Source: a virus (taxonomy: Duplodnaviria > Caudoviricetes). From it: a stretch of 64,000 nucleotides of DNA. The notes beneath the pieces were generated by a model, which had not been told where the DNA came from, searched no databases, and saw nothing but the letters and a program-made list of their open reading frames with translations. Location of the stretch: the IMG/VR virus record IMGVR_UViG_2847686936_000003, positions 3,507 to 67,506 of that record. One strand, 5' to 3'. Both the position numbers and the translations under genes were made by a program. Below are positions 5,588 through 59,840 of the stretch, piece after piece (position 1 is the first letter of the stretch; every line of letters begins with the position of its first letter).

Positions 5588-5610
5588 ATCTCGCGCAAAA
5601 AAAATGCAGA

Positions 5611-6210
5611 TCAGAGTGTGGAAATCCTCAGCCGGGCGCGTCCGATGACCTTCAAGTCCTTCGGCTGGACGGTTTCGTTGACCGCCGCGGGGTTGTCGTT
5701 GTGGACCTGGACGGCGCCTGCCGTCGTGGGCGAAAGGTAGCGCCACTGCACCGCGCCGGCGATCTCTAGGGCGAAGATGCCGGGTCGATTGGGGGTGTTG
5801 TCGTCCAGATCGATCACAAGCGCATCCCCTTTGGCAACAATGCCATTGGCCTGGTAGGCGTCGACCATCATGAACCGGAGGTTGTGGCCCGTTGAGTTCG
5901 GCAGCATCCGGGCCAGAAACTCAGGATCCAGCACGAGGCCTGGCGTTTGATTTTTGCCGCCGGCGATCTCGAACACCTGGTTGAATTTGCTGACGTCAAT
6001 CGCCGCAAGCTCCGGAAACATAAGCTCTTCCGGCCTGACATTGAGGTGCGGCGCGATTCGCTCCGCCCACTTCAACGTGAGTTTCCGGCCGTTTGGGCCA
6101 TCCTCTTCCTCGAGGCGGCCCATCTGGGGCCTTGTGGTGCCAACGCGACGCGCAAGCTCAGCCTTGGTGAGCCCGGCTTTCTCCCGGAAGTGCTTAATTC
6201 CATTCGCCAT
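5611..6210 (-). CDS. CI-like repressor: XRE HTH + S24-like C-terminal domain lacking the Ser-Lys dyad
   Basis: IKHFREKAGLTKAELARRVGTTRPQMGRLE HTH; GDALVID...GIFAL...VIGRA S24 scaffold; divergent from the Cro-like gene. Confidence 0.85.
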   Translation of the reverse strand: MANGIKHFREKAGLTKAELARRVGTTRPQMGRLEEEDGPNGRKLTLKWAERIAPHLNVRPEELMFPELAAIDVSKFNQVFEIAGGKNQTPGLVLDPEFLARMLPNSTGHNLRFMMVDAYQANGIVAKGDALVIDLDDNTPNRPGIFALEIAGAVQWRYLSPTTAGAVQVHNDNPAAVNETVQPKDLKVIGRARLRISTL

Positions 6211-6246
6211 ATCAATGCGGTAGCTCAAAACGATTTCCTGCGAAAC

Positions 6247-6297
6247 GGTGCCAGAATGGTTACAAACCTTGACTTGTAACCAAATTGGTGACAAAAC
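6247..6297 (+). promoter_or_regulatory. PR promoter (TTGACT -35 at 6269-6274) with OR operators
   Basis: gtaaccaaattggtgac at 6276-6292 fills the spacer; second degenerate site at 6247-6263. Confidence 0.7.
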
Positions 6298-6303
6298 CCG
6301 CCC

Positions 6304-6540
6304 ATGGAAAACCTGCATCAACTGACGAAGTGGCGTGAAGAACGCAATCTAAGCACTGCCGACGTGGGCCGGATGATCGACTGTACGCGGCTGACAGTCG
6401 ATCGGTACGAGGCCGGCCGGATGCCCAGGCAACCATATCTCGACCGCATCGTCGTTATGACCGACGGTGAGGTGAACGCAAACCATTGGTTGGGCAGGGA
6501 GGCGGCAGATGTTGTTGCACAGTGCCGGACTTCGGCTTGA
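6304..6540 (+). CDS. Cro-like HTH regulator
   Basis: LTKWREERNLSTADVGRMIDCTRLTVDRYEAGRMP; divergent from CI. Confidence 0.85.
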   Translation: MENLHQLTKWREERNLSTADVGRMIDCTRLTVDRYEAGRMPRQPYLDRIVVMTDGEVNANHWLGREAADVVAQCRTSA

Positions 6541-6769
6541 CCCGAGATACGATCCACACGGTTCCTCGTTCCGTCCGAAATTGGTCGGCGCGTTCAACAA
6601 CTTCCCAAGCCGCAACTCCAAGCGGTTTCCAGCAATCATCGTCATGGGCCATCGGCATTCCCCTTGCGGTTGTCGCGATGATGGCGGGGAAATTGTTGGA
6701 TGTGTCCGACAAGGCATCCGAGAATCCCGATGGGTCGTCGTTCCTTCTCCTGTTTTTTGTGAGGAATCG

Positions 6770-7060
6770 ATGCAGGATATTGCTGCAGAGCTACAACAGG
6801 TGGTGTTCAAAGCCGCCGGAACTATCAAACCAGGTATGGGCATCAAAGCTCAGATCAACGCTGCCTGTGACGCGCTGGGCTATCCGCGTGGCCACTGGCG
6901 GGTGAGGGATGCTTGGTACGGCACCGCTTCCAACTGGAACGGCAAAGCCATCTTCGACCTCCTCGGCCGCTACAACCGTTTGTGCCAAAAGGCAGGCTCC
7001 GATGTGGAGCCGGTTAACGAACCTGTAGCCGTCATCGCGAAAGCTTCGAACAGGGGCTGA
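6770..7060 (+). CDS. CII-like hypothetical regulator
   Basis: Position downstream of cro; IKAQINAACDALGYPRGHWRVRDAWYG. Confidence 0.55.
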   Translation: MQDIAAELQQVVFKAAGTIKPGMGIKAQINAACDALGYPRGHWRVRDAWYGTASNWNGKAIFDLLGRYNRLCQKAGSDVEPVNEPVAVIAKASNRG

Positions 7061-7154
7061 TTTTGACGGAGGTGTGATTTCCTCCGCCAATTACTTCCGC
7101 CTTAGGTCCGCACGGATGTTTCAGGTTGAAACATTCCCAGGAGGTTTAATAAAA

Positions 7155-7364
7155 ATGAAGCAGACTGACGGCGGGCAGGCGGTAAACGGTGAAGTAAAGA
7201 CAGTTATGGCCGGGTTTTGTCATACAGCAAGGAGCATTGGATCGGCTGCCGCCGAGCGAAGTGCAACTGTGCATCTGGTGGCTGCAGCGGCATATCTGGG
7301 AGAAAACGTCGGTCCTACCATGACTAAACAAATCCTGTCGGCGGTGTTGGCGTCGATTGGATAG
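7155..7364 (+). CDS. hypothetical protein
   Basis: GAGG SD ~10 nt upstream; 69 aa. Confidence 0.45.
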   Translation: MKQTDGGQAVNGEVKTVMAGFCHTARSIGSAAAERSATVHLVAAAAYLGENVGPTMTKQILSAVLASIG

Positions 7365-7441
7365 GCAATGAACTACCGCATTGAACGGCAATACCATTTG
7401 TAGCTTGTAGGATTGCCGCTCCTCGCAGTTGAGAGAGCGAC

Positions 7442-7744
7442 ATGACGATAATTCGTAAGCATGGCCCGAGACCGGTCCGCGAGGATCGGGCCTTCGTGTA
7501 TGTGATGACGGCTGAGCACGGCGGGGTCAAGATCGGGATGTCGACCGATCCCACCCGCCGCTGCAAGGCCGTAAATCGCAACAAGGCCATCAAAGCGGTG
7601 GTGGTGTTCCAGCGGCACTTCGCAGACCATCAGGACGCTGAGCGGCTCACCCACATTGCCCTGGCCAAATGGCACCTGTCTGGCGAGTGGTATAGTTGCC
7701 CGGTTGAAACCGCGGTCGCGGCAGTTGAGGCACTGCCAACATGA
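7442..7744 (+). CDS. GIY-YIG / T5orf172-type protein
   Basis: FVYVM...VKIGMSTDPTRR...AERLTHIAL...GEWY. Confidence 0.8.
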   Translation: MTIIRKHGPRPVREDRAFVYVMTAEHGGVKIGMSTDPTRRCKAVNRNKAIKAVVVFQRHFADHQDAERLTHIALAKWHLSGEWYSCPVETAVAAVEALPT

Positions 7745-8642
7745 GCCATGCCGCCACAAATTGGGCCATAACCCAGCGCGGGCTCAAACCTGCCACGCGC
7801 ATCGTCCTCTGGCATCTCTGCGACCGCCACAACCCCGACCTTGGCTGCTTCCCGTCCCAAGACAAGCTCGCCTATGACTGCGAGATGTCGCGCTCTGCGC
7901 TCAATGAGCATCTCAAGATCCTGGAGCTGACCGGCCTAATCCGCCGGGAGCAGCATATCAACCCCCGCACCAAACAGCAGGAGAACACGCGCTATCGGTT
8001 CGCGTTCGAGGCCGATTTCGTCACGGCAGAAGATGTGGTGGAGCCGAGTCCGGAATCTGGACACGGGGCCGAGTCCGGAAAAGAGGGCGAGCCGTGTCCG
8101 GAAAATGCCTATAGCCGAGTCCGGAATCCGGACACTAACCCTGTAAGGGAACCAGTAAGAGAACCTCCAGGGCGCGCTGACGCGCCGGGCGGAGGGATTT
8201 CGATATGCTGTGGTCCTCATGGCCAGAGAAGATGCGACCGGACAGCCGGGAAGCGGCTGCGAAGACGTTCGCAAGCCTTGAAGCTGACGGCAAGGCGCTG
8301 GCGGTTGCGACGGCGGGGACCTATCGAACAACCATGATCCTTCGGAAGGAAAAGCCCATGATGATCCCCTTCCTGAAAAAGCAGCTCTTCCTCGAGTTCC
8401 ATGGCGCGCCACCCATCGACAAGGACGGGGATTTCGTGATCACCCCCGAGCGGCCCGAGTGGGGCGCATGGCTGGGCTCGATCCGCCGCCACTATGGTGA
8501 GCCGGGCGTGCAAAGCACGATTAAGTGTCGTCGCATCCTACGGAAAACACGTTGGCCGAGTGATCTTTCGCTTGCCAATCGTGTAACCAATTTGGCAATA
8601 TCTGGAACCGTAACGGATACTGCTTCGGCGGCTCGGGCATGA
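7741..8642 (+). CDS. phage replication initiator (N-terminal wHTH), split by a 1-nt frameshift at ~8195
   Basis: IVLWHLCDRHN...CFPSQDKLAYDCEMSRSALNEHLKILE; adding one G to the GGG at 8194-8196 joins it to ORF 8205-8642. Confidence 0.75.
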
Positions 8643-12755: not shown

Positions 12756-12792
12756 CGCGCGCTGGCGGAGCCTCTACACTCGACAAGAAAAT

Positions 12793-12853
12793 GGGGCAGC
12801 GGAGACCAATCCGCTGCCCCTCCCTACCACAACCCGCCGGCCGGAGCCGGCGG
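12793..12853. terminator. two GC-rich hairpins between convergent operons, flanking a CCCTACCAC motif
   Basis: ggggcagcgg/ccgctgcccc (12793-12820) and ccgccggc/gccggcgg (12834-12853); no U-tract. Confidence 0.5.
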
Positions 12854-12862
12854 CGCGGATTC

Positions 12863-14267: not shown

Positions 14268-14280
14268 CTCCGTGGTAGGG
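14268..14280 (-). repeat. start-associated leader CCCTACCACGGAG, copy before the ParB gene
   Basis: Identical copies at 16536, 17184, 18963, 20733, 24769; variants at 18071, 18221, 20969, 25151. Confidence 0.9.
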
Positions 14281-14300
14281 AATTTCCTAGCAACATCAAT

Positions 14301-14329
14301 AACTTAGCATGTAACCGATATGGTTACAA
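14301..14329 (-). promoter_or_regulatory. operator-promoter: TTGTAA-N17-TAAGTT containing perfect GTAACC-N5-GGTTAC (14311-14327)
   Basis: Read directly from sequence; same design at 17403, 18992, 21012, 51622. Confidence 0.8.
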
Positions 14330-14476
14330 GTGGTTACCAAGAAAAGTTCCGATCAGCGGGCCCCCCGCTTGCGCGCGCGACCGCCAGAAACGAAGCCGTG
14401 CAAAATGGTAATCCTGCCTCGGCGTCTGATGATCAGGGAAGCGGATGGCTGGTATCAAAGTTTCCGACAACAGCGG

Positions 14477-15369
14477 TCAAGGGAGCGGCAGCGGTGCATC
14501 ACTCAAGGTCCGCAGGTAGGCAATGAGGTCCGCCCGCTTGTTTCCCTCCTTCAAACCCGGGAAAGACATGTCCGTACCGGGCAACGTGAGCGAGGGATTC
14601 GAGATGAAGAGATTGAGCTCCTCAAAGGTCCATTTGCCGCCAGCGTCTTTCAGAGCCGCCGAATACTGGACATCGCTTTGGGATCCTTTCTCGCGCCCGA
14701 CGATGCCCCACAGATTGACCTTTTTGGGCACCTTGACGCCCGGCGAAAGATGACAGGCGACGCAGGTGCTGTCGTATATCTCTTTGCCCGATTGAGCGTT
14801 TGCTGATGCAAGGAGTGCGGAAATCGGCGCGATGGCCGGTCTTGCGGCGCCATGATCGCGCAAGTACGCCGCGACGTCCTCGTGGCCTCCGACCTTGGCC
14901 AGATGTATCGGCGGACTTCCATTCGACGTCAGGGCGTTGACGTCTGCTCCGGCGCCGACAAGGTGGATAACGCACTCAAGGCAGCCATTTTCGGCAGCAA
15001 CATGCAGCGGCGTCTGCGCTTTCGCCACCCGATTTGGATCGGCCCCGTTGTCTAGCAGCAGCTTGACGATGGCAGCATGCCCACCCTTATTGGCGGCGTA
15101 GAGTGGCGTTCTTTGCCAACTGACAGGCAGGTTGACGTCTGCCCCACGCTTGATCAGCAGCGCTGCCAACTCGACATTTCCACGTTCGGAGGCGATGTAG
15201 AGCGCCGTAACACCGTCGATTTCGTTGACATCTGCGCCTTTGTCCAAGGCGGAGGTCACGGCCGCGACGTCGCCATCCTTGACCAAATCCCCAAGCTGCT
15301 CGCTTGCGCGGGCAGGGCCAGGAGAGCGCACGAAACCCACAGCGTCCACATGCGTCCCGGCTTGATCAT
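14477..15369 (-). CDS. exported ankyrin-repeat / cytochrome c fusion protein; 1-nt frameshift at ~15301 separates the signal peptide
   Basis: MIKPGRMWTLWVSCALLALPAQA signal peptide in the adjacent frame; four ANK repeats (TALYIAS, TPLYAA, TPLHVAA, PPIHLA); CVACH haem motif, NLWGIVGR, PGTDMSFPG axial Met. Confidence 0.85.
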
Positions 15370-15503
15370 TGCACCCCTCTAGGCTGCTCGTATCTCACCC
15401 TGCAATTTAACCGAACGCAGAGAGTTAGTACACGCTAATATATGAAGAGGGGACGACGATCGGCTGGACGGTGGTGGTGTGTCGATGTTCATGCCAGCCA
15501 CCC

Positions 15504-16028
15504 TCAGTCTATATTGCAGCGAACGAGCGCGGTCGCGTAGTCGATGCCGGTCTCTTCGGCATAGATCGCGGCCTGATCGCCGGGACGATTGGTGGCGGCC
15601 GCCGTCGTCGACGGCTCGGCTTTGGCGATGGCTTCGGCCACCATCGCATTGCTTTTCAGGCTCGGGTCTCGGATGACGCAGAGTTTGAGCGCCGCCAGGA
15701 TGTCCCGCCGCGCCCGTTCGCGCGGGATCGCGGCGCGCAAACTGGCCAGGATGTCACCGACGCCCTTCTGCAGCGGATCACTCTCGAAGCCGGAAATGAA
15801 CGACTCGGCCCGAGTCAGAGCGTCGACGGTGTCGCTGGCGTCGAACGGGAGCCTTTTGACGAGCTCGTCGCGGAGCGTGGCGGCGGACTCGAGCGTGAGT
15901 GTTTCACACGCCCGCGACCCGCCCTTCGGGCCGTAGAACGAAAGCACGACTTCGCCCTTGCCTCGCGCGGCGCTGTTCAGCGATTCCATCGTGCCCTTGG
16001 CGGCGATGCTGATGTAAATCGTGTCCAT
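15504..16028 (-). CDS. hypothetical phage protein
   Basis: MDTIYISIAAKG...; TGATG coupling to 16028-16534. Confidence 0.7.
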   Translation of the reverse strand: MDTIYISIAAKGTMESLNSAARGKGEVVLSFYGPKGGSRACETLTLESAATLRDELVKRLPFDASDTVDALTRAESFISGFESDPLQKGVGDILASLRAAIPRERARRDILAALKLCVIRDPSLKSNAMVAEAIAKAEPSTTAAATNRPGDQAAIYAEETGIDYATALVRCNID

Positions 16029-16534
16029 CACATTTCCCCTTCGATCTTGTCGGCCAAGGGCGAAATAACCTCGTCCCAGATCGCATTGCAGATTTCGTTG
16101 TCGGCGTGGTCGGACACGACATCGTAGCCCGAATTGCCATAGATCAGCTGGAACCAGCCGAGCTTGTCGCCGGTCGGGCTCCGCAGATGAATTCCGTCCT
16201 CGTCGTTCGAGAACAGCGCCAGCATGATCGCCGCCTTGTCGTCGGACCGCCTCACCACCCAATCCTCGCTGTCGTAGACGGAAATCAGGTAGCCCCGGTC
16301 GAGGCAGGCCTTCACCAGCGTGCGGGCGATGCGGCGCTCGGCGCGGATGCGGTCAGCGGTCTCACGCGAACGGCGCGCCAACGCCTGCTCGATCGCTTCG
16401 TCGAAGCCGGTCTTCGGCTCGCCCATCTCGGCATCTTCGGCCAGCCGGGCGGACAGCGCCTGGTTGCCCGAGGCGGTGAGAGCATTGCAGATCGCCAGCA
16501 TTTCAGCCGGCGTAACGTTGATGGTCATGGTCAT
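16028..16534 (-). CDS. hypothetical phage protein
   Basis: ERRIARTLVKACLDRGYLISVYD...WFQLIYGNSGYDVVSD; preceded by the leader motif. Confidence 0.8.
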   Translation of the reverse strand: MTMTINVTPAEMLAICNALTASGNQALSARLAEDAEMGEPKTGFDEAIEQALARRSRETADRIRAERRIARTLVKACLDRGYLISVYDSEDWVVRRSDDKAAIMLALFSNDEDGIHLRSPTGDKLGWFQLIYGNSGYDVVSDHADNEICNAIWDEVISPLADKIEGEM

Positions 16535-16573
16535 TCTCCGTGGTAGGGGTGGATCCCGAGGAAGGCGCGGGGA

Positions 16574-17176
16574 TCAACCCCACGCCAGTCCCCAGCGTTT
16601 GGCGCACACCGGCCCGTAGCCGACGTCGATGGAGCGGTGGTCGGTCAGCTCGGTCGCGCAGAAACAGCAGTTGCCGGTGCGCTTGCCGTGCGCCGCGCCG
16701 GCCTTCGAGGGGTTCTCGGCCAGAGCGGCGAGAGCGGCCGCCAGACCGTCAGGACCGGGCGACCGGCGCGAGCGGGTGAACTCGCCCTTGCGGTCGATGC
16801 GGCCGTACCAGTCGCGGCTCTCGAAGGATCCCGGCGACGATACGTTGATCTGGCCGACGTGAGCGGAGCGCTCACCCGACAGAGCGAGGACGACGGTCTC
16901 GCCGTTGACGTCGAAGCGAATCTTCGGATGCTTGAGCTTGTTGGCGATCGCCGTGTCGAACAGCGCAATCAGGCCATCCATCGAGCCGACCTTGGCCTTC
17001 GGCGCCGCGGGCTCGCCGGCTTGTGCGCGCTGGGTCAAGGTCGCCACCCAGGGCCACTGCCGCTCCGAGAGACTCGAGCGGCTGTCATACTGGTGCAGGA
17101 GGGATGCGGCGAACTCCGCGTCGCGGCCGTGCAGCTTCGGGGCTGACTGGCGCACAGCTTCGATTTCGAGGTTCAT
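16574..17176 (-). CDS. DUF6011-like Zn-finger protein
   Basis: C-terminal HGKRTGNCCFCATELTDHRSIDVGYGPVCAKRWG. Confidence 0.75.
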   Translation of the reverse strand: MNLEIEAVRQSAPKLHGRDAEFAASLLHQYDSRSSLSERQWPWVATLTQRAQAGEPAAPKAKVGSMDGLIALFDTAIANKLKHPKIRFDVNGETVVLALSGERSAHVGQINVSSPGSFESRDWYGRIDRKGEFTRSRRSPGPDGLAAALAALAENPSKAGAAHGKRTGNCCFCATELTDHRSIDVGYGPVCAKRWGLAWG

Positions 17177-17391
17177 GTCTGGTCTCCGTGGTAGGGATTT
17201 CCCGGATCGGTGCGGCTCCGGCGGTTATGCTAGGCCTGGCCCGTCCCCGGTTCGATTTCACTCGGCCGGTCAGTTTGACGAGAAGTCACCAATCGCCGGC
17301 CCGTTGCTGAAAGGGGAGTTCCGGCGAAGGCTGCAGCGGTGAAAGGAAACGGCTTTCTGCTGCACCGATCTGAATTTCTAAGTTACTTCAA

Positions 17392-17421
17392 TAACTTAGC
17401 TTGTAACCAAATCGGTTACAA
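17392..17421 (-). promoter_or_regulatory. operator-promoter TTGTAA-N17-TAAGTT with perfect operator at 17403-17419
   Basis: Nearly identical to the element at 14301-14329. Confidence 0.8.
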
Positions 17422-17461
17422 GTGGGTGCAGGCAAAAAGAACGACATGACTTCGGTGGTGG

Positions 17462-18058
17462 TCAGTTCACCGGCTTGAACCGGGATTCCAGGACGGCGCC
17501 GGAAATCGAGCGCTGGTCGTCGCCGCATTGCACGAGTGCCTGGTCGACGTGTTCCGGATTGACGCCGATCACCTTCCAGACGCGGCCCTGCTGGTCGGGC
17601 GCTTCGGCGCCGAGGTAGGGCGCGACCTGGAGGGGCTGCGGCGGCTGACGCAGGCGGTATTGCGTCGGCAGCTTGGGATGGTGCCAACCGCAGCCCTCGG
17701 CCTCCAGGCCATGTTCGACCACTTCGAGCCGAAGCTTTTCTTTCAGCCAGACCGAGATGTAGGCGCGATGGCAATACTGGTTGTCGGTCGGGGCCTCATA
17801 GCAGAGCAGGGCGACGTCCCTGCCGCCCGAGAGGTCTTCCATCTTGGCCACGATCCGGCCAGGATGGAGCCTATCCAGGCCTTCGAAGTAGAGCTGCTTA
17901 TACTCGCGCTCGCTGGCGGTCTTGAACCATTCGCCTGGGGCGAGTTCGGGCATTTTGCGGTAGCCCGCCGGATATCCTCGCGGCGTGCCCCTCGACACCC
18001 CGATCTTCTGGATTTCGGGCGGCAGCTTGCTGAACCAGGAGCTGGTGAAAATGCGCAT
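17462..18058 (-). CDS. DUF488-like protein
   Basis: RIFTSSW...IGVSRGTP...ELAPG...VALLCYE...CHRAYISVWL. Confidence 0.7.
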   Translation of the reverse strand: MRIFTSSWFSKLPPEIQKIGVSRGTPRGYPAGYRKMPELAPGEWFKTASEREYKQLYFEGLDRLHPGRIVAKMEDLSGGRDVALLCYEAPTDNQYCHRAYISVWLKEKLRLEVVEHGLEAEGCGWHHPKLPTQYRLRQPPQPLQVAPYLGAEAPDQQGRVWKVIGVNPEHVDQALVQCGDDQRSISGAVLESRFKPVN

Positions 18059-18121
18059 CTTCGTCTCTTTCGGTGGTAGGGCTTTGGACAGGTCCAAATG
18101 TAAATCCGGTGAACTTCTCAA

Positions 18122-18159
18122 GCAACCAAAATGACACTGTATGTTACCATTTTGGTACG
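18122..18159 (-). promoter_or_regulatory. two degenerate operator sites upstream of the DUF488-like gene
   Basis: gcaaccaaaatgacact (18122-18138) and gttaccattttggtacg (18143-18159). Confidence 0.5.
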
Positions 18160-18164
18160 TTGCC

Positions 18165-18614
18165 TCACCCGTACATCTGCATTAGGTATGGGTTCTCTCC
18201 AGCGCCTTCGGGCGCTGTCCTGTGGTAGGGATGGAGAGGAGGGCCGATCAGGGGCAACCCGGTCGGCCTTTGATATTTCCGGCGTGGCTGCGGCGCCTCG
18301 AAGCGCACTTCGGGATAATTGACCCACGCCGTCACCGTCTCGAAACTGATGGCGCGCGGCAAGCTCTTGACGTCGTCGAGCAGCGTTCGTCCTGCCAGGA
18401 TCCCATTGCCCGCGAACTCGGCGCCCGAGCGGAAAAACTGGAAGGTCCTTCGCCATGGTCCGGTTGAGAGCCAGAGGTCCAGGCCCGGCGCCAACTCCAC
18501 GCGGTCGAGGCTGTCGCTCTCAAGAAGTTCGCAGAAGAGCTGGTGCCCCAGAGGGCGCGGCGTCTGGTAGTCGATGGCGCGCCGGAGTGTCGAATCGATC
18601 AGGATGAAGCGCAT
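18165..18614 (-). CDS. hypothetical protein
   Basis: MRFILIDSTLRR...FAGNGILAG. Confidence 0.65.
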   Translation of the reverse strand: MRFILIDSTLRRAIDYQTPRPLGHQLFCELLESDSLDRVELAPGLDLWLSTGPWRRTFQFFRSGAEFAGNGILAGRTLLDDVKSLPRAISFETVTAWVNYPEVRFEAPQPRRKYQRPTGLPLIGPPLHPYHRTAPEGAGENPYLMQMYG

Positions 18615-18955
18615 TGCAGTTCTCGTGCCTCGAGGCGTTGGTTGATGGTGGGGAGCGTCTCGCTGGCGAACAATTCGAGCCACCACTTGATCAGCTCGGC
18701 CTGGTAGCGGTCGTCGGCCGCACGATGGCGGGGCTCGCGTAGCTGTCGCTCGATCCAGTCAAGCCGGTCGCGAAGATCCGGCCGGTAGAGCAGATTGCGG
18801 AATGCATCTGCGAGCCGCATGTCCAGGGCGTAATCCCCGGTGCAGCCGAGGGGCGACCAGTCGCTGTACCAGGACGACCACATGTCCAGGGCCTGGCTGA
18901 TGGTGGGGAGCCGGCGCCGCCGCTCCTCCTCGTCTTCTGGTAACGGGCGAAACAC
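18599..18955 (-). CDS. hypothetical protein (GTG start)
   Basis: Leader CCCTACCACGGAG 8 nt upstream of GTG; VFRPLPEDEEERRRRLPT... Confidence 0.65.
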   Translation of the reverse strand: MFRPLPEDEEERRRRLPTISQALDMWSSWYSDWSPLGCTGDYALDMRLADAFRNLLYRPDLRDRLDWIERQLREPRHRAADDRYQAELIKWWLELFASETLPTINQRLEARELQCASS

Positions 18956-18980
18956 TTTTGGGCTCCGTGGTAGGGATAAT

Positions 18981-19010
18981 GATCCTATGATGTAACCAAT
19001 TTGGTTACAA
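18981..19010 (-). promoter_or_regulatory. operator-promoter TTGTAA-N17-TAGGAT with perfect operator at 18992-19008
   Basis: Read directly from sequence. Confidence 0.8.
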
Positions 19011-19020
19011 TATGGCCAAG

Positions 19021-20586
19021 CTAAAAGTAATTTCTGCGGCCGTCCTTCCATAGCTTGACCGTGACGGTGTTCACGTAGGTCCCGACCTCGGCGAAGGAGC
19101 CGTGCGGCAGATCGCGGAACTGGCCGTTCAGCTTTTGGATCAAGCCCCGGAAGGCGATGGCCTTGCGCGTCTCGCGAAACTCGGTGCCGGCCGACATGAT
19201 TGCAGCGAGGCACCCGCCGTCTTCCAGGAAGTCGAGGGCGTGCACCACATGGTCGATGTCGCGCTCCATGTCGAACGGCGGGTTCATGATGATGCGATCG
19301 TATTTTCCCGTCACTGAGGGGCGGAGCGCAAGGAAGTCGGTCGCGTAGACCTTGCGATAGAGGCGCTGCGCTTCGAGCGCGGCCGACAGCGCAGGCTGCA
19401 GCTCGACGCAATCGACGATATTGTCGAAGCGATACTCGGCGCGCCATCTCTCGCGCTTCACCGGGTCGTCGTAGCCGTAGTGACCGGAGAAGTCGTTTAG
19501 GCTGGTGATGCAACGTCGCGCGAGGTTGCCGATGCCGGCGCTGGGTTCGAGGATCCGAAGGCGCGGCGCATCGCTGGCCTGCATGATCGGAATGCCCTTC
19601 AAGAGCTCGTCGGCCGCCTCGTCCGGCGTCGGGAAAAAGCCGAAGTTCTTCGCCGGCGTGGTCTTGCGGTTCCGGAACAGATCGTCCTGCTCGCGCGTCT
19701 GGCCGTCGCCGATCACCTCGCCATAGTATTCGGCGAGCATCTTGTTGACCCTTTCCACCAGGTCGTCACGCGTGAACCAGAGATGCGCATTGCCGTTCTT
19801 GTAGGCGACGATCCTGAAATACTCGCCGTGATGTTCGGACTGCTGTGGCTGGAAGCCCCTGCGCTCGGCGCGCACCACGTTCTCGATGCTGTTGTAGGAC
19901 GGCTTCTTGCCGTCGAGGACGGAGAAGGTGCGTTCGATATCGCGCACGGTGTCCCACGTGCCGCCCCACGAAACATGGCCATGGTCGCGGTCGAAGGCAT
20001 AAGTCAGGATCATGCGGCTGCCGACCTTGAAGCCGTCGTGAGACCGGAACCGGCGGTCCAGCTTGGAGAAGGCCGTCGCTATGCCGCGCCGGAAGATCAT
20101 CTCGGACTCGCCGGCCCACTTCTCGATGGTGGCGTACACATTGTCGACCGTGACGGGAGGAATCCCCATGATCTCGTCGAGGTTGACCAGCTCCTTGCCG
20201 TCACCGCGGTCATAGCGCTCCGGCACCCACTTCAACGTGTCGCGCAACTCGTCCTTCGCCTGTTTGTCCATCAGGACTTCGAGATCCGTCATCTTGACCA
20301 GATAGTGCCAGCACGAGATGTCGATGAGGCGGATGGCGGTACGCTTCCACTGCTCGGCGTCGGGCAAATCGACGGCCTCGAGAAAGGCCTTCACCTCGCC
20401 GTTGTCGCGGTCGCTGTACCTGGAGCAAGCATGCTCGCCAGCGGCTGCTTTCCAGAGCGCCGCCGCCTTCTTCAATTCCCGATCAGCCTGCTCGATCGAG
20501 GCGAATGCGCCATGATAGGCGGCCACGGCTGCATCGCGATAGGCGACGATCTGCTCGATCGTGTTGCGAGGGATCAGCGCGTTCAT
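19021..20586 (-). CDS. DUF4942-like domain + class I SAM-dependent (N6-adenine) methyltransferase
   Basis: N-terminal W..L..MTDLEVLMD...EYFRIVAYKNGNAHLWF; C-terminal FFPTP...ILEPSAGIGNL...DCVELQ...DFL...IMNPPF. Confidence 0.85.
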   Translation of the reverse strand: MNALIPRNTIEQIVAYRDAAVAAYHGAFASIEQADRELKKAAALWKAAAGEHACSRYSDRDNGEVKAFLEAVDLPDAEQWKRTAIRLIDISCWHYLVKMTDLEVLMDKQAKDELRDTLKWVPERYDRGDGKELVNLDEIMGIPPVTVDNVYATIEKWAGESEMIFRRGIATAFSKLDRRFRSHDGFKVGSRMILTYAFDRDHGHVSWGGTWDTVRDIERTFSVLDGKKPSYNSIENVVRAERRGFQPQQSEHHGEYFRIVAYKNGNAHLWFTRDDLVERVNKMLAEYYGEVIGDGQTREQDDLFRNRKTTPAKNFGFFPTPDEAADELLKGIPIMQASDAPRLRILEPSAGIGNLARRCITSLNDFSGHYGYDDPVKRERWRAEYRFDNIVDCVELQPALSAALEAQRLYRKVYATDFLALRPSVTGKYDRIIMNPPFDMERDIDHVVHALDFLEDGGCLAAIMSAGTEFRETRKAIAFRGLIQKLNGQFRDLPHGSFAEVGTYVNTVTVKLWKDGRRNYF

Positions 20587-20723
20587 GGCTTCGCCTCGAC
20601 CGGCTTGGCGCTCACGGCGCCGTGCATCTTCTGGAACGTGAAGACGTCCTTGCGCTCGATGACGATCTCGCAGCGCTTGCTGCCGTCGGGCAGCGTGAAC
20701 TCGTATTCAACTGGCTTGGTCAT
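20583..20723 (-). CDS. 46-aa hypothetical protein (below the ORF-track cutoff)
   Basis: MTKPVEYEFTLPDGSKRCEIVIERKDVFTFQKMHGAVSAKPVEAKP; leader motif upstream, ATGA overlap with the MTase. Confidence 0.75.
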   Translation of the reverse strand: MTKPVEYEFTLPDGSKRCEIVIERKDVFTFQKMHGAVSAKPVEAKP

Positions 20724-20798
20724 TGGTCTGGTCTCCGTGGTAGGGATTGGTGGGCGACGGGACCTCTCCCGCCGCCCTATCGAAGGGATTTTCTGCCT

Positions 20799-20957
20799 CT
20801 ATCGGTGCATCGCGCCTCCTGCTCCCGTTGCATCAAACTCGGCCTCTTCCTCCTCGGCCGCGAACTGGTCGGCCCGCTGCTCCCTGCAGGAGGGGCAGCG
20901 GCAGCTTTCGCTGCCGTCGAAGGGGAAAGGGGTTAGGCAGTCGTCGCAGTAGGGCAT
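20799..20957 (-). CDS. 52-aa Zn-ribbon protein with acidic tail (below the ORF-track cutoff)
   Basis: MPYCDDC...CRCPSC...EEEEAEFD; leader motif and operator-promoter upstream. Confidence 0.7.
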   Translation of the reverse strand: MPYCDDCLTPFPFDGSESCRCPSCREQRADQFAAEEEEAEFDATGAGGAMHR

Positions 20958-21001
20958 GGTCGACTCGTCTCTGTGGTAGGGAAAACCGGTGTAACCACAA
21001 C

Positions 21002-21030
21002 AGGTTAGCGTGTAACCAAATTGGTTACAA
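21002..21030 (-). promoter_or_regulatory. operator-promoter TTGTAA-N17-TAACCT with perfect operator at 21012-21028
   Basis: Read directly from sequence; second half-degenerate site at 20991. Confidence 0.8.
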
Positions 21031-21296
21031 TGCGGCCACGGACAAAAGATCGTGTTCGCCCAGGTGCAGTTGTTGGGAGGTTAGAGGTGTCGACAGGTGC
21101 GCCGACTGCGCTTAGCGCAATAGAAGCCACGACCAGTATGCCCTCGATCGCCATCCGCCCGAGAACTAAGGATCGATCAATCGGGCTCGGCTTTTGATGC
21201 GGCGATGGATAAGATCGACCATGCGCCCAAGCTCATCAATGAGCAGATAAAGGAACTGGCGCGGCGCAAGCGGGACGAGGGGAAGGACTAACCTCA

Positions 21297-21650
21297 ATGA
21301 AATGCGCCGCCGAACCGTCCGTTGCATTGCTGATCTTCGCTCTGGTCGGATGCGGCGCAGTGGATGGCGTACAATCGTTCGAGATGCGTCGAGACGCCGA
21401 CGGCGCGCGAGCTTCATGCGGGCTAACAACTGCCCCAGCATCTTTAAGCAATGATAAAATCGACCCTGATGTAGCCCGCTGCGTAAATGCATGTAAGCAG
21501 CTTGGGTTTGTTGTCGAGAGCGCTTTCCCTCCCGCTCTGATCAACAAACAGGTTGATGCGTCTGGTGATAGCTCGCCCGCAGATGTCCAATCTATAAAAA
21601 CTAGGAGCGCCCTGCTGTCCGGGACGTGCTTGTACCGTATACATGCGTGA
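21297..21650 (+). CDS. putative lipoprotein (moron)
   Basis: ALLIFALVGC lipobox, several Cys; locally lower GC; opposite strand to neighbours. Confidence 0.5.
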   Translation: MKCAAEPSVALLIFALVGCGAVDGVQSFEMRRDADGARASCGLTTAPASLSNDKIDPDVARCVNACKQLGFVVESAFPPALINKQVDASGDSSPADVQSIKTRSALLSGTCLYRIHA

Positions 21651-22073
21651 GCCCTAGCCCCAATCCCCCTCAAGGCTGGGGCTTTTCCATTCGGAATAGC
21701 GGCCGTGAACGCGAAAGAATCCGCGACAGGCCGGCACACTGTGACAGGGTTGCCTCCAGGCAACCAATTTCGTAGCAAGTCGAGATCGAAAGAACTGGGA
21801 TCGGACAAATGGAAGATTACGACAACCAGAAGGGCGCCAAGCCCGAAGACGTGCGCCACGCTTTGAAAGGGTGGACATTTTTCCTCGTGATAACGACAGC
21901 CATCTTTGGCGCGGCCTACGCTCTGATAGAGATGTAAGATGATCTCCCCGGCAGACGGATTGCCGGAGAAGATTGGAACGGCGGTTGGTGCAGTCGTCAT
22001 CATCGCCGGTGCTTAGGGGATTTATCTAGCCCTTGCGGCCTAGCATCAGGCGCGGATCTAAATATCTTGTCCC

Positions 22074-22922
22074 TCAAAATGCGAAGGCGAGTTGGCCGGT
22101 CTTCTCGACGCAGCTGGGGATGCCGATCGGCGCGAGGCCCGGCAGCGCATGGATGAAACCGCCCGGCTGGTAGGCGGGATCGTTGCGGCGCTCCTCACGG
22201 AGACGGCTGTCGTCTGCGTCGTGCCGCTTGTTCCCCTGCCAATGGGCGAGGCCGAATGGCGGGTTGTGGAGCTTGCACTTTGCCGCCACCTTGCCGTGAT
22301 GATCGATGAGCAGGTTGTGCTCCATCGATATCGTCAGCATCTCGTCGACAGTCATTGCCTCTTCGACGAACCAGCGTTCGCGGGAGAGCCCGCCGCCGGT
22401 GAAGGATCGGTAGCCGGTCTCGCTGAAAAACGGCTGATCGAGGTCGATCACGCGACCGTCGAGGCCGACGCCGCCGAAGACGCCCGGGTAGCGCACGTCG
22501 GTGCGGCAACTGTGAATGGTCAGCATGAACCGCCCGGGCTGGCCGTGCATCGGGATTTCGCCATCGGGCGCGGCCAGTTGTTTGCCGAGCCAGGACGACG
22601 CCGAGTTCCAGCAGTTGAAGCGGGAGCGGAAACGGCCGGAACCGTCCGCGCGCTCCTCCCGGCCGCCGTATTCCTCAATCCGGTAGAGCGTCTCGACACA
22701 TGCCTCGATCACTAGCTCGTAGGGAAGGCGGCCGGGCTTGTCGCAGGCCATCATCGCGGCGTGGTAGTGGTGGAGGGCTTCCCGAGCGATTCCGACCAGA
22801 TATTCGTCGGACCCGTCGCGCAGCATGGCGACATTCTCGTCGATCTCCTGACCGCGTTTCTCGGCCTCGATCTGCCAAGCGTGCTTCTTGGCTGGTGCTT
22901 TCGCCTTGGCGGTCTTAGCCAT
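22074..22922 (-). CDS. KlcB-like protein
   Basis: APDGEIPMHGQPGRF...DLDQPFFSETGYRSF matches the motif I recall from plasmid KlcB-type proteins. Confidence 0.6.
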   Translation of the reverse strand: MAKTAKAKAPAKKHAWQIEAEKRGQEIDENVAMLRDGSDEYLVGIAREALHHYHAAMMACDKPGRLPYELVIEACVETLYRIEEYGGREERADGSGRFRSRFNCWNSASSWLGKQLAAPDGEIPMHGQPGRFMLTIHSCRTDVRYPGVFGGVGLDGRVIDLDQPFFSETGYRSFTGGGLSRERWFVEEAMTVDEMLTISMEHNLLIDHHGKVAAKCKLHNPPFGLAHWQGNKRHDADDSRLREERRNDPAYQPGGFIHALPGLAPIGIPSCVEKTGQLAFAF

Positions 22923-23415
22923 TGCCGTACCTCGGAAGTTCTGCGAGCGACGAGAGGGGCGGCAACCCCATGCGCTCGCGAGATCGGTTGATGATGGGGA
23001 GAGGGTCGAAACCCTTGACGCCCGGACCTCGGTAGACCCATGGCGGGTTCTCCGGGTCGAGCCGGCCGACGTCGTAGCTGTGGAGCATCTCGGCGAAATA
23101 TTCCGGCGTGCCCGGGTAGGGAGCGCTATTCCAGAGTGCCCGCAGGATTTTCCGGATGTTGTCGCCGTAGGCGAAAAGCCGGCTCCTTGCACGACGCCAG
23201 TTCGCGGCGCGGCGGCCGCGAGTATTCTGCTCCCAGATCACCGCTTGCTCGGCGCGCTGCGCCATAACGGTGTCGGCGTCTGGCTGCTCCTCTGCGATCA
23301 TCTCGGAAAAGAGCGGCAGTTTCTCTCGCTCAAGGCGCTGCTTTCGGGCCAAGGCGAGCCGCTTTCGCCTCGTGTCTTCGAACGGGCCATATCGGCGTGT
23401 CCGGAAGTGGCGCAT
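22915..23415 (-). CDS. conserved plasmid/phage hypothetical protein
   Basis: RKQRLEREKLPLFSEMIAEEQPD...WRRARSRL...W...PYP..PEYFAEML. Confidence 0.7.
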   Translation of the reverse strand: MRHFRTRRYGPFEDTRRKRLALARKQRLEREKLPLFSEMIAEEQPDADTVMAQRAEQAVIWEQNTRGRRAANWRRARSRLFAYGDNIRKILRALWNSAPYPGTPEYFAEMLHSYDVGRLDPENPPWVYRGPGVKGFDPLPIINRSRERMGLPPLSSLAELPRYGNG

Positions 23416-24149
23416 CAGAGCAACCTCCCCTCGGCCACCTGCCAGACGCCCTCGCCTAGCGGTTCGAACGGGCCGCGCTGTAGGGTCTGGCGGACCTTCG
23501 CCTTCCAGTTCGGATTGCGTTCGGACTTCGGATTCTCGGCCAAGGCGCGGTAGAGATCGTCGAGCCGCACGGCCGCGCCGGCGCGCTGCATCACCTTCAA
23601 CACCTCGTCGACCCACGAGCCGACGGAGGCAAAGCCGAAGATCAGCGAGCGCAGGCGCAGCGGCACGAAAGCGCCGGGAATGCCGCTGGCCGCAAGGCGG
23701 TCAGCATCGTCGGCGCCATAGGCGCAGAACACCGACGGCGCGCCGGCGTTGGCCTTCGCTCGAGTCCCAGCCGCATTATGGAAATGAAGCCGTCCCTCCA
23801 TGAAGAGGAGCGCGTCGGCCGCACGCCACACGAACTCATGGAACACCTGCGTTTCGGTGCGGGCGAAGATCAGCGCGATTCCATGGGCGTGCTCGGCCAT
23901 ACGGCCCATCCAGCGGCCGATCACGTTGTTCGAGTATGGCGGGTTGAGCCACACGCGACCGTGCCAGGGCCGGGCTAGACCGTTGTCGGCGATGGTGTAG
24001 TGCTGGCGCGCCATGTCCCACGGCCGATCGAGGGGAGCGCAGGGATCGAGGTCAAAACTCTCGGCGCCACCGAGCGCGGCCAGGAGGGCGGGAGGGGTCA
24101 GCCAGACGTCGGTGCCGGCCGCCGCGGACTGATGGCTACCGATGGGCAT
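23415..24149 (-). CDS. phage Dam-type N6-adenine DNA methyltransferase
   Basis: WLTPP...FDLDPCA...WHGRVWLNPPYS...LIFARTET...GRLHF. Confidence 0.9.
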   Translation of the reverse strand: MPIGSHQSAAAGTDVWLTPPALLAALGGAESFDLDPCAPLDRPWDMARQHYTIADNGLARPWHGRVWLNPPYSNNVIGRWMGRMAEHAHGIALIFARTETQVFHEFVWRAADALLFMEGRLHFHNAAGTRAKANAGAPSVFCAYGADDADRLAASGIPGAFVPLRLRSLIFGFASVGSWVDEVLKVMQRAGAAVRLDDLYRALAENPKSERNPNWKAKVRQTLQRGPFEPLGEGVWQVAEGRLL

Positions 24150-24390
24150 GGCGCGCCTCCTCGGTCAGCCTGCGCAGCACGTCGCCGACGCTGCTGATGG
24201 GACTCTCCAGCCGGGCCTCGTCGAGCTCGGCCAGATCGATCTTGGTTTCGTTCCCGTCTTCATCGATCATCGTGAAGACGCTTGCGGTGGAGTGCGGCTT
24301 GCGCAGGATATCCCACGCCCAGCGTGCGGCCGCTTCGGGATCGCCTTCGCCCTCGTAGTCGATCTCCCATGTGACTAGATAGCGGGCCAT
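24136..24390 (-). CDS. hypothetical phage protein
   Basis: YLVTWEIDYE...AAARWAW...F. Confidence 0.75.
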   Translation of the reverse strand: MARYLVTWEIDYEGEGDPEAAARWAWDILRKPHSTASVFTMIDEDGNETKIDLAELDEARLESPISSVGDVLRRLTEEARHAHR

Positions 24391-24758
24391 CAGCGCTGCT
24401 CCCGCTTGAGCATGTCGCGCGCCGCTCCGCGCGCCATGGGTCCGTCGCCGAAAGCGCCGTCTGCGATCTCTTGCAATTCAGCAGTGCGCGGGTCAGGTCC
24501 GTCGCAGGCGTCTTCCTCCTCTTCGTCCACGTCCTCGCGGGTGAGCTGGTCGAACGTCCACTCGTCGCCCTCCTCGTCGAGGAAGACGATCTTGCCGTTG
24601 CGCTTGGCGGTCTGGATATCGTTCCAGAAGATTTCGGTGCCGCCGGCGTATTCCGGCTCGCCCGTCTCCGGGTCGATGTCGCTGATGTGAGCGCGGCCGG
24701 TCAGCCGCTCCAATGTTCCGGTGATCGGGCTTCCGGTAGGGGATAAGTAGTTGGCCAT
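24390..24758 (-). CDS. acidic hypothetical phage protein
   Basis: YLSPTGSPITGTLERL...EYAGGTEIFW...FLDEEGDEW; leader motif upstream. Confidence 0.8.
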   Translation of the reverse strand: MANYLSPTGSPITGTLERLTGRAHISDIDPETGEPEYAGGTEIFWNDIQTAKRNGKIVFLDEEGDEWTFDQLTREDVDEEEEDACDGPDPRTAELQEIADGAFGDGPMARGAARDMLKREQR

Positions 24759-24785
24759 GGTCTCTGGTCTCCGTGGTAGGGGATT

Positions 24786-24802
24786 GTTGCCAAAATGGTT
24801 GC
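24786..24802. promoter_or_regulatory. degenerate operator gttgccaaaatggttgc
   Basis: Similar to the site at ~5317-5333; directly upstream of a leader motif. Confidence 0.45.
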
Positions 24803-24965
24803 GAAACGCGCTTGACAAAAAGCCAGGGGGGCAGGCAGAAATCGCGCAGCCTGATGTTGCTTCGCGATTCGGCCAATCCCCGAAAATCAGTTGGTGTCGA
24901 AGCCACTCGGCGAGGGCTCAATTCCGGCCTCTTTCGCCACGAAGCCCACGACGTCGAGCACGTCG

Positions 24966-25139
24966 TCAGAGCTTAATTTCTTCGATGGTTTCGGCGAAGC
25001 GCCGCTTGAAATAGGTCTGGTGCTCCGCACCGGCGTAGCGGGCCAAGCCGATGGCAGCGGCGAAGGTGATCGCTTCCAGGCGAGCGCCGCCGAAGCCGGA
25101 CTTCTGATGAAGGCTGGCTGCGAGATCGTTGAGGGTCAT
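24966..25139 (-). CDS. 57-aa hypothetical protein
   Basis: MTLNDLAASLHQKSGFGG...; variant leader at 25151-25161 and operator-like sites at 25165-25201. Confidence 0.65.
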   Translation of the reverse strand: MTLNDLAASLHQKSGFGGARLEAITFAAAIGLARYAGAEHQTYFKRRFAETIEEIKL

Positions 25140-25239
25140 TGGTCGGTAATCGGTGGTAGGGAAAGTAACCGTTCTGGTCGCAAGTAACTTCATTTGGTTA
25201 CACCTTCGATGCAAGTGAAAAAGCGAGGCCCTCGGCGTT

Positions 25240-28301: not shown

Positions 28302-29951
28302 ATGGCGCAGAAGTCTGCCGCCGCCCGCGCGCCGCTCATTGCCCCCGACCTCGAAGACCTGCTGATCGAGCGAGACCGGCGCAAGGCCAAGGGATCGTTC
28401 GCCGAGTTCGTCAAGATGGCGTGGCTCGAACTCGAGCCGGAGACGCCGCTGGTCTGGAACTGGCACATGCAGGTGGTTTGCGACCATCTGCAAGCGCTGG
28501 TCGAGGGCAAGTTTCTCGAGCTGGGCCTGCGCAATCGCCTCGTCATCAACGTGCCGCCCGGCACATCGAAATCGCTTCTCGTCTCGGTGCTGTTGCAGGC
28601 ATGGGAATGGGGACCGGCCGGCCGCCCGGGCATGCGGTATCTGTCGACGGCCTACAACGACGGCCCGGTCAATCGCGACACCCGCAAATGCCGCGATCTG
28701 ATCCTGTCGCGCTGGTACCAGGACCGCTGGCCCGAGGTTTATCTCAGCCGCAGGGCCGAGACCTCGTTTGCCAACAACAGCACCGGCACCCGCGAGGGCG
28801 TGGCGTTCGGCTCGCTCACCGCGCAGCGTGGCGATCGCCTGATCATCGACGATCCGCACTCGACCGAGACGGCGGAATCGGCGACCGAGCGCACCGCCAC
28901 GACCCGCAAGTTTCGCGAGGGCGCGCAAAACCGCCTGAACGACCAGAAGCGCAGCGTGATCATCGTCATCATGCAGCGCCTGCATGAGGCCGACGTCACG
29001 GGCGTCATCCTCGACGGCAAGATGGATTACGTCCATCTGTGCCTGCCGATGCAGTTCGAGCCCGACCGCTGCTGCTACACCCCGGTCAAGGTTTCCAGTT
29101 CCGTCGGCGAGCCTATCCTGGCGCGCTATGACGCGAGCAAGCAGCACTGGTACGGCGAGAACGACAATCTGCCGGACGAGCGCCGCGCCGAGATCGAGGC
29201 GATCAAGCTCCAGCTCGTCTGGCGGCAGGATCCTCGCACCGTCGACGGCGAGATACTCGACCCGGTCCGCTTCCCACCCGATGAGCTGAAACAGCTCTAC
29301 AACGACATGACGTCGTATGCCGTCGCGGGCCAGTATCAGCAGCGGCCAGCGCCGCGCGCCGGCGGCATGTTCCAGCGTGCCTGGTTTGAGGGTCGCATCG
29401 TCAGGGCGGCGCCGAAGGGCACGATCTGGGTCCGCCATTGGGACTTGGCCGGCACGCGCGGCGGCACTGGCGCGCGCACCGCCGGCGTCAAGCTCGGCCG
29501 CGATCCCGAGGGCCGCTACTATGTCGGCCATGTCGTGACGCTGCGCGAGGAAGGCAAGTCGGTCCGCAAGACGATCGAGACGCAGGCCGCGCTCGACGGC
29601 AAGACGGTCCACATCAGCCTGCCGCAAGATCCTGGGCAGGCCGGCAAGGCGCAGGTGCAGGATTTCGTCGCGCAGCTCGCCGGCTACAAGGTGCATGCCG
29701 AGGGCGAGACCGGCGACAAGGTCACGCGCGCCGAGCCGTTCGCCGCGCAATGCGAGCACGGCAACGTCTACATCGTCGAAGGTGAGTGGAACACGCTCTA
29801 CCTCGACGAACTCTGCCTGTTCCCAGCCTCCAAGCTGATGGACCAGGTCGACGCATCTTCCGGAGCCTTTACGAGGCTGCTTAACATCAAGGGGGCCATG
29901 GTGATCAGCGACGACGTCCTTCGGCGCGCTGCCCAGCCTGGGCCGCGATGA
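28302..29951 (+). CDS. terL: terminase large subunit
   Basis: NVPPGTSKS Walker A, LIIDDPH Walker B, IMQRLHE, WDLAG and DQVDA nuclease motifs. Confidence 0.95.
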   Translation: MAQKSAAARAPLIAPDLEDLLIERDRRKAKGSFAEFVKMAWLELEPETPLVWNWHMQVVCDHLQALVEGKFLELGLRNRLVINVPPGTSKSLLVSVLLQAWEWGPAGRPGMRYLSTAYNDGPVNRDTRKCRDLILSRWYQDRWPEVYLSRRAETSFANNSTGTREGVAFGSLTAQRGDRLIIDDPHSTETAESATERTATTRKFREGAQNRLNDQKRSVIIVIMQRLHEADVTGVILDGKMDYVHLCLPMQFEPDRCCYTPVKVSSSVGEPILARYDASKQHWYGENDNLPDERRAEIEAIKLQLVWRQDPRTVDGEILDPVRFPPDELKQLYNDMTSYAVAGQYQQRPAPRAGGMFQRAWFEGRIVRAAPKGTIWVRHWDLAGTRGGTGARTAGVKLGRDPEGRYYVGHVVTLREEGKSVRKTIETQAALDGKTVHISLPQDPGQAGKAQVQDFVAQLAGYKVHAEGETGDKVTRAEPFAAQCEHGNVYIVEGEWNTLYLDELCLFPASKLMDQVDASSGAFTRLLNIKGAMVISDDVLRRAAQPGPR

Positions 29952-51610: not shown

Positions 51611-51640
51611 CAAACTAACTTGTAACCGACTTGGTTACAA
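51611..51640 (-). promoter_or_regulatory. operator-promoter TTGTAA-N17-TAGTTT with perfect operator at 51622-51638
   Basis: gtaaccgacttggttac. Confidence 0.8.
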
Positions 51641-59834: not shown

Positions 59835-59840
59835 CGAGTG

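Follow-up and report, generated by a model that had tools for sequence, protein, structure and literature searches.

The 64,000-nucleotide window analysed here (bases 3507-67506 of the 67.5-kb virus record IMGVR_UViG_2847686936_000003; positions refer to the window unless called genome positions, and the phage is denoted G000) carries a short leader that recurs in front of start codons in its leftward accessory gene block. This leader represents a new family of start-associated sequence (SAS) in alphaproteobacterial prophages, which is real, private to the phage and widespread: the SAS architecture, in a sequence different from that of the cluster K mycobacteriophages, is spread over many uncultivated phages. 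New is also that a complement of the leader is situated at the 3' end of the very block that it tags, which provides a concrete candidate partner, and we propose such a partner both for the system described here and for that of cluster K. The explanation best supported by the sequence data is that the leader is an RNA-level element targeted by an antisense RNA of the phage itself, a reading for which we consider the chances of being right and of being wrong to be about equal.

The full form of the leader is (T)CCCTACCAC-GGAG(A), i.e. 13-15 bases, and its copies in the window span 14.2-25.2 kb. The exact 13-mer CCCTACCACGGAG is found six times on the minus strand (at 14268, 16536, 17184, 18963, 20733 and 24769), and three variants occur on the same strand at 18069-18081 (..CCGAA), 20969-20981 (..CAGAG) and 25149-25161 (..CCGAT). 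When up to two mismatches to the 13-mer are allowed, 11 matches are recovered against an expected 1.27, a number that was reached in none of 100 shuffles, and the complete record contains 12 copies of the 9-mer CCCTACCAC, where base composition predicts 0.84. Ten of these 12 copies have a start codon within 30 nt downstream that opens a reading frame of at least 40 amino acids, and the repeated leader that the initial annotation had described in front of about ten accessory genes is therefore real. One start-associated copy falls just beyond the window (genome position 2314-2326). All start-associated copies share a single orientation (minus strand) and precede non-structural genes only; the scan of the whole record yielded no copy in the structural region, in line with the earlier remark that none had been noticed in the structural operon, and the weak echo that had been reported near 51530 turned out to be merely CCCTAACCGAAG, which is not significant.

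The distance between the 9-mer and the start codon is 5-15 nt, which places the GGAG at normal Shine-Dalgarno spacing (about 7-11 nt from the start codon). Pooling of 54 sites from five records reveals a sharply delimited information content, consisting of a T at position -1 (44 of the 54 sites), the invariant 9-mer and GGAG(A), with nothing conserved further upstream. Only the GGAG of the leader can pair with the anti-Shine-Dalgarno sequence. The 9-mer lacks any G, and the motif is predicted to be unpaired in every context that was folded; the hairpins noticed earlier in front of some copies are recovered by folding upstream of 16548 and 20745. Copies are present both in promoter-proximal 5' untranslated regions (UTRs) and at intercistronic junctions, and their orientation is always that of the genes. 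The marked genes are located behind a promoter or an intergenic gap; the motif is missing where the start codon of a gene overlaps the stop codon of the preceding one (ATGA). The co-orientation with genes, the adjacency to GGAG, the presence in 5' UTRs as well as between cistrons, the lack of G and the predicted unpaired state together point to an action at the level of RNA.

The leader motif is private to the phage. A search with the ParB-like protein encoded in the block led to Mesorhizobium sp. WSM3860 and WSM3862, which carry prophages of 95% identity (94-96%). In the host genomes (G006 and G007) the exact 13-mers all lie within the prophage; outside it, the 10-mer core TACCACGGAG is absent from G007 and occurs three times in G006 (chance level). 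Among 202 Mesorhizobium species genomes, multiple copies are confined to the two prophage hosts; of the other 200 genomes seven have one copy each, and as a set these 200 are at the level of a reversed-pattern control. These counts rule out that the motif is equally common before host genes, an outcome that the initial annotation had named as a refutation of its reading.

Scans of IMG/VR retrieved the motif in front of start codons in at least 12 further records, including G001, G002, G004, G005 and G208-G214, and no close relative of this phage was found among GenBank phages. The records G001 (20 motif copies in 39.5 kb) and G002 (17 copies) have only the ParB-like protein, a DUF4942 methyltransferase and one or two more proteins in common with this phage. 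The spacing between 9-mer and start codon in G002 varies from 0 to 21 nt, which implies that the 9-mer and the Shine-Dalgarno sequence are two distinct elements. An unusual arrangement is seen in IMGVR_UViG_3300037424_002033 (L121:905-960), where two leader motifs are inverted relative to each other and only 14 nt apart; one has an ATG about 10 nt downstream and no start is seen in the sequence read past the other.

The record contains a single copy of the motif in the opposite orientation. This anti-SAS, GTGGTAGGGA at 12821-12830 (minus strand), is the perfect complement of TCCCTACCAC and is located in the 3' UTR past the stop codon of the ParB-like gene (12863); on the gene strand it reads GUGGUAGGGA, the perfect complement of UCCCUACCAC. 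A GC-rich hairpin with a weak 5-bp extension at its base (hairpin 1; 12831-12858, minus strand) lies on one side of it, and on the other an intrinsic terminator with an 11-bp GC-rich stem and a U-rich tail (12783-12820, minus strand), which ends the leftward accessory block right after the anti-SAS. In the predicted fold both hairpins form and the anti-SAS occupies the linker between hairpin 1 and the terminator, where the extension of hairpin 1 pairs (U)GUGG, i.e. the first four anti-SAS bases and the preceding U, and leaves UAGGGA free.

A perfect complement of 9-10 nt, in either a linker or a hairpin loop, is present in all seven related lineages and is conserved through changing flanking stems. 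The linker form, GUGGUAGGG(A), is found in G000, G007, G003 and G005 despite differences in the stems of hairpin 1 and the terminator: the element of G007 has a form identical to that of G000, the element of G003 (UUGGUAGGGA) differs in both stems, and that of G005 reads CGUGGUAGGG. G005 has a deletion of parB that spares the whole element (hairpin 1, complement and terminator) along with a remnant of the region around the parB stop codon (L077:10440-10540). In the case of G006, G215 and G004, which at first looked seedless, UCUCCGUGG occupies the loop of hairpin 1 directly before a homologous terminator; it is the perfect complement of CCACGGAGA and hence of the Shine-Dalgarno sequence as well. 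The stem in G004 is wholly unlike that of G215 and G006, and the loop is identical. When each of the seven elements was shuffled 20,000 times, only 16-106 of the shuffles yielded a complement of such length. A scan with the conserved terminator for further lineages returned only the known four among viral sequences and three unrelated, apparently coding hits in metagenomes.

The register of the complement appears to be reflected in the motif itself. In G215, where the complement is shifted 3'-ward, TACCACGGAGA is retained and the three C's at the 5' end of the motif have degenerated (conservation of 89/56/56%). Where the complement has the 5' register, the conservation of these C's is 90-100% and that of GGAGA is looser. 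This suggests that the conservation of the motif co-varies with the register of its complement, in a small sample in which G006, a recent recombinant, is without the effect as yet.

On the basis of the above we propose the following mechanism. The sequence U-CCCUACCAC-GGAG-A would act in the messenger RNA, where it would mark each independently translated cistron of the leftward early/accessory block, the translationally coupled genes being without it. In this lineage the leader would be the docking site of the 3' element (hairpin, 9-10 nt complement and intrinsic terminator), and this element may work either as a small RNA derived from the 3' UTR or as the tail of early transcripts. Provided that the RNA accumulates and pairs with the leaders, the pairing would cover about -20 to -8 of each target, and in the sister lineages the Shine-Dalgarno sequence itself, and would thereby block the binding of 30S subunits and shut off all marked genes together, as a delayed negative feedback that sets in after transcription has arrived at the end of the block. 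We infer repression from the position of the pairing only. If the proposal is true, the phage would have a simple means of silencing its accessory genes as a set, or of controlling their timing, with a single RNA; many of these genes are probably toxic or directed against defence systems. The leader with its partner would then constitute a portable, orthogonal translation switch.

An independent case is offered by G208 (IMGVR_UViG_3300021167_000775), a phage for which no protein in common with this phage was detected. A non-coding region of about 290 nt (29515-29805, plus strand) is located there between divergent operons and adjoins motif-led genes. Its predicted folding energy is -177.9 kcal/mol (z = -9.9) on the strand of the motif-led genes versus -148.2 kcal/mol (z = -6.7) on the opposite strand, and the favoured strand contains three hairpins that are tipped with CCGUGGUAGGGA, 12 nt complementary to UCCCUACCACGG, within the apical loop in two hairpins and across the tip in the third. 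A scan for this loop produced chance hits only.

The comparison with the SAS of cluster K mycobacteriophages that was drawn in the initial annotation proved apt. The cluster K SAS is an asymmetric sequence of 13 bp with a Shine-Dalgarno core, located a few bases before the starts of 10-20 non-structural genes; it occurs in one orientation and not in the host genome, apart from gene starts there is a lone copy in the opposite orientation, and about half of the copies are extended, i.e. located behind a promoter (sigma-70/SigA-type) with an inverted repeat (PMC3203893; PMC11373665; PMC12699233). The leader described here has the same placement, the same restriction to non-structural genes and, like the cluster K SAS, is asymmetric with a Shine-Dalgarno core, has one orientation, is absent from the host and has a single opposite copy off the gene starts; in both systems about half of the copies have an operator-bearing promoter in front of them. 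The two differ in consensus (GGGATAGGAGCCC in cluster K versus CCCTACCACGGAG here), in host phylum, in phage type and in the conserved part, which lies 5' of the Shine-Dalgarno sequence here and around it in cluster K. The leader has every functional trait of an SAS, including a counterpart of the extended SAS (a palindromic operator with a promoter), and is an analogue of the cluster K sequence, not a member of that family by sequence.

The lone reverse SAS of cluster K can be viewed in the same light. In Anaya (JF704106) it is located at 59870-59882, in the apical loop (10-12 nt) of a long hairpin, and this hairpin element (59789-59934) resides in a 385-bp non-coding gap past the terminator of gp96. 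Elements of this type were recovered from 135 cluster K records, mostly without annotation, and an alignment of seven sequences with identities down to 75% contains six compensatory pairs and the loop CCUCCUAUCCC in five of the seven. The SAS was described in 2011 (PMC3203893) and its role was still called unknown in 2024 for Adephagia (PMC11373665) and in 2025 for Yasnaya_Polyana (PMC12699233); in a literature search that was not exhaustive, these papers were found to make no mention of an antisense RNA partner. We tentatively suggest, as a possibility to which we give somewhat less credence than to its opposite, that the SAS is a convergent and widespread phage device in which a private leader tags early genes for silencing by a single antisense RNA of the phage's own, and that the lone reverse SAS of cluster K is the loop of that RNA. 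If so, the hairpin element would be a candidate partner for a sequence whose function has been unexplained since 2011.

Various observations speak against the antisense reading or limit its reach. The loop of the cluster K element is different in SirPhilip and has drifted in Ekdilam, and both phages retain 15-17 canonical SAS copies. The first four bases of the linker-type complement are, according to the predicted fold, paired at the base of hairpin 1. As the seven lineages share ancestry, their complements amount to some two independent events, to which G208 can be added. A duplex-energy scan of the 3' element against all translation initiation regions did not separate the targets from the background, since in GC-rich DNA everything pairs and such a scan is uninformative. 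No 9-mer in the opposite orientation was found in G001, G002 and G209-G214; several of these records are fragmentary, but G210, G212 and G213 are 89-100% complete. In G001, a candidate loop at 30999 falls inside a long putative open reading frame. Because the motif is kept in such records, pairing may be an added layer: the partner may be more degenerate there or located elsewhere, or the primary reader may be of another kind, in which case antisense RNAs may have been added repeatedly, the shared leader being a ready handle. Finally, the direction of the effect is a guess.

What other reader could account for the leader? The most serious contender, which we nevertheless regard as rather unlikely, is that a protein, be it of the phage (RegA- or RegB-like) or of the host, reads the leader as a translational operator or enhancer, and that the antisense copies are secondary or coincidental. 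The site has precisely the position at which repressors of the RegA type or the GGAG nuclease of the RegB type act, it is letter-perfect in many records that have no detectable antisense partner, and its retention across phages with almost no genes in common would fit a reader supplied by the host. However, the motif never precedes host genes, which would be strange if its reader were a host factor, and on the side of the phage no protein family occurs in all ten motif-bearing records that were compared (the commonest, the DUF4942 methyltransferase, is found in eight), nor did Pfam and PHROGs reveal an RNA-binding domain among the proteins of the block. A protein reader would moreover leave the two registers of the complement at the 3' end in seven lineages unexplained. 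A very improbable alternative is that the leader works purely in cis, as an unstructured, G-free standby site or by pairing with ribosomal RNA (rRNA) beyond the anti-Shine-Dalgarno sequence as the T7 epsilon element does. Although CCCUACCAC is C-rich, G-free, predicted to be unpaired and adjacent to a short Shine-Dalgarno sequence of 4 nt, a mere standby site would need no letter-perfect conservation, and no host gene uses even the 10-mer core. The best complement in the host 16S rRNA comprises 7-8 bp including G-U pairs and is situated in the structured helices h11 and h44, which is no better than chance; the motif also resembles the 3' strand of h11 at 10 of 13 bases, which is again about chance level, and the leader of the rrn operon yielded no match. 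An antisense small RNA of the host was rejected as well, in that all 12 host TGGTAGGGA sites outside the prophage look coding and their counts equal those of the control. Rfam returned no match at the gathering score and no relevant one at E-values up to 5 (c4 included), and a search for tRNAs and tmRNA found none. With respect to the three functions that had been put forward for the leader beforehand, a translational enhancer that works through the ribosome is thus unsupported, given the chance-level 16S complementarity and the lack of use by host genes; a micro-homology for the shuffling of cassettes fits the data but is not distinctive (see below); and of an RNA-binding or processing site it is the RNA-binding part that is best supported, the likely ligand being an antisense RNA, which had been missed.

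Two further alternatives place the function of the leader in DNA. It could be a recombination linker, a micro-homology like the boundary sequences of lambdoid phages, at which genes are swapped behind a constant promoter and ribosome-binding site and which owes its conservation to spread and conversion rather than to a reader. Of some 70 BLAST homology ends obtained by comparing the block with six relatives, about 12 are indeed no more than 3 nt away from an edge of the motif, against an expectation of about one; a conserved island between diverged genes would, however, give identical breakpoints without any recombination. In G003, the counterpart of the 24781 leader has been left as an orphan together with its promoter, and a 4.3-kb cassette begins 2 nt after GGAGAC and extends to the next operator; G005 has the same promoter and leader in front of another small gene; and promoter-leader segments of different cassettes cross-match. 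On the other hand, 13 nt is very short for homologous exchange, and the identical 9-mers in unrelated phages, the fixed Shine-Dalgarno register and the strand bias argue for selection on expression. We consider the linker unlikely as an explanation of the leader, and the exchange of cassettes at the leader to be a likely side effect, not its function. The cassette of G003, which is the prophage of a Mesorhizobium isolate (L076:11950-16263), has opposite-strand open reading frames of 500, 420, 193 and 123 amino acids and takes the place of six window genes (24758-22074). Slightly more unlikely still is a DNA site of the stoperator type, i.e. an asymmetric 13-bp sequence to which a DNA-binding protein of the phage binds so as to modulate or block transcription in an orientation-dependent manner, as in mycobacteriophage L5. 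The leader is likewise asymmetric, co-oriented with transcription, intergenic, multi-copy and phage-specific, and a ParB/KorB-like helix-turn-helix protein is encoded in the block; but the early promoters of the block, in contrast to what the L5 comparison calls for, already carry a different, palindromic operator, no DNA-binding protein is shared by all motif-bearing records (G005 is without the ParB-like gene), and a DNA site would need neither the coupling to GGAG and the start codon nor a complement in the loops of RNA hairpins.

The antisense reading has several precedents, each of which differs from it in some respect. The c4 RNA of P1/P7 and the CI RNA of satellite P4 are small antisense immunity RNAs that are cut from the operon they control, and they pair with repeated short sites at or near the ribosome-binding sites of the phage's own genes, with two targets. 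The element described here resembles them, at the level of sequence, in that in seven lineages a complement of repeated sites in ribosome-binding regions is exposed in a loop or linker; it would have some ten targets instead of two, and its complement is located at the 3' end beside a terminator instead of in the leader. The latter arrangement is that of CpxQ, SroC and DapZ, enterobacterial small RNAs derived from 3' UTRs that have their seed upstream of their own intrinsic terminator: here, too, the complement directly precedes a U-tailed terminator and shares its transcript with a protein gene, but the element is encoded by a phage and its proposed targets are the phage's own cistrons. A coordinate shut-off of numerous early genes at the post-transcriptional level, through their ribosome-binding regions, is known from T4, where it is brought about by the translational repressor RegA and the GGAG endonuclease RegB; these are protein readers with loose sites, whereas the site described here is letter-perfect and no candidate protein was found for it.

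The promoters that feed the leaders have a control of their own. The palindrome TGTAACC-N5-GGTTACA at 14310-14328 overlaps the -35 of the promoter in front of the first leader, similar sites are present at 17402-17420, 18991-19009 and 21011-21029, with degenerate versions at 24785-24803 and 25164-25182; six out of ten SAS copies are located 20-60 nt downstream of such a palindrome that overlaps a -35. At least 14 of these sites were observed, many of them over the -35 of leftward promoters, and they are also present at 5293-8621, at 51621-51639 and at genome positions 34 and 2474. A repressor with a prophage-wide regulon probably has its operator in this palindrome. The -10 and transcript start CTAAGTTATTGAT, which precede the motif by 19-24 nt (14295-14307 and 17385-17400), are conserved here and in L032, L012, L118 and L080, phages with almost no genes in common; 17378-17400 forms a perfect 8-bp inverted repeat (CTAAGTTA/TAACTTAG). 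The leader itself was considered as a promoter (sigma-70, sigma-32, sigma-54 or T7-like) and rejected, as its spacing to upstream elements is variable and many copies are located at intercistronic junctions.

The genes that are marked by the leader encode mainly small proteins without an assigned function, the named products being a Dam-like methyltransferase, the DUF4942 methyltransferase, a DUF488 and a DUF6011 protein and the ParB-like (KorB-like) protein. All copies listed here are on the minus strand. The copy closest to the 3' end of the block (a T followed by CCCTACCACGGAG; 14268-14281) precedes the ATG of the ParB-like gene (14260) by 7 nt and has the operator-bearing promoter directly upstream. 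Next in the order of positions are a copy at 16536-16548, before the ATG (16534) of a 168-amino-acid gene and behind a hairpin that holds the upstream stop codon, and one at 17184-17197, 7 nt before the ATG (17176) of the gene for the DUF6011 protein. The DUF488 gene (ATG at 18058) is preceded by the variant CCCTACCACCGAA at 18069-18081, and a gene for 118 amino acids that starts with GTG (18955) by a copy at 18963-18976, at a distance of 7 nt and with the operator 18991-19009 upstream. The copy at 20733-20746, likewise behind a hairpin, leads a gene for 46 amino acids (ATG at 20723), to which the DUF4942 methyltransferase gene is translationally coupled. The variant CCCTACCACAGAG (20969-20982; operator 21011-21029 upstream) precedes a gene for a Cys-rich protein of 52 amino acids (ATG at 20957), the copy at 24769-24781 a gene for 122 amino acids (ATG at 24758), the homology with G003 and G005 stopping 1-2 nt past this copy, and the variant CCCTACCACCGAT (25149-25162) a gene for 57 amino acids (ATG at 25139).

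A further sequence on the minus strand, at 18218-18230, had been listed as a variant of the leader (at 18221). The sequence is indeed present, but it is not a leader: CCC TAC CAC encodes Pro-Tyr-His in the conserved C-terminus of a protein of 149 amino acids. Its interpretation as a structured non-coding RNA, based on stems that were first read as covarying, was abandoned, as frame 0 is open and the peptide conserved in four lineages, which implies that the copy is coding. The protein in question (18165-18614, minus strand) has the conserved C-terminal tail ..RPTG(L/F)P..PYHR..ENPY(L/V)MQMYG*, and the DNA that encodes this tail resembles nested hairpins around the motif and is therefore easily mistaken for a non-coding RNA.

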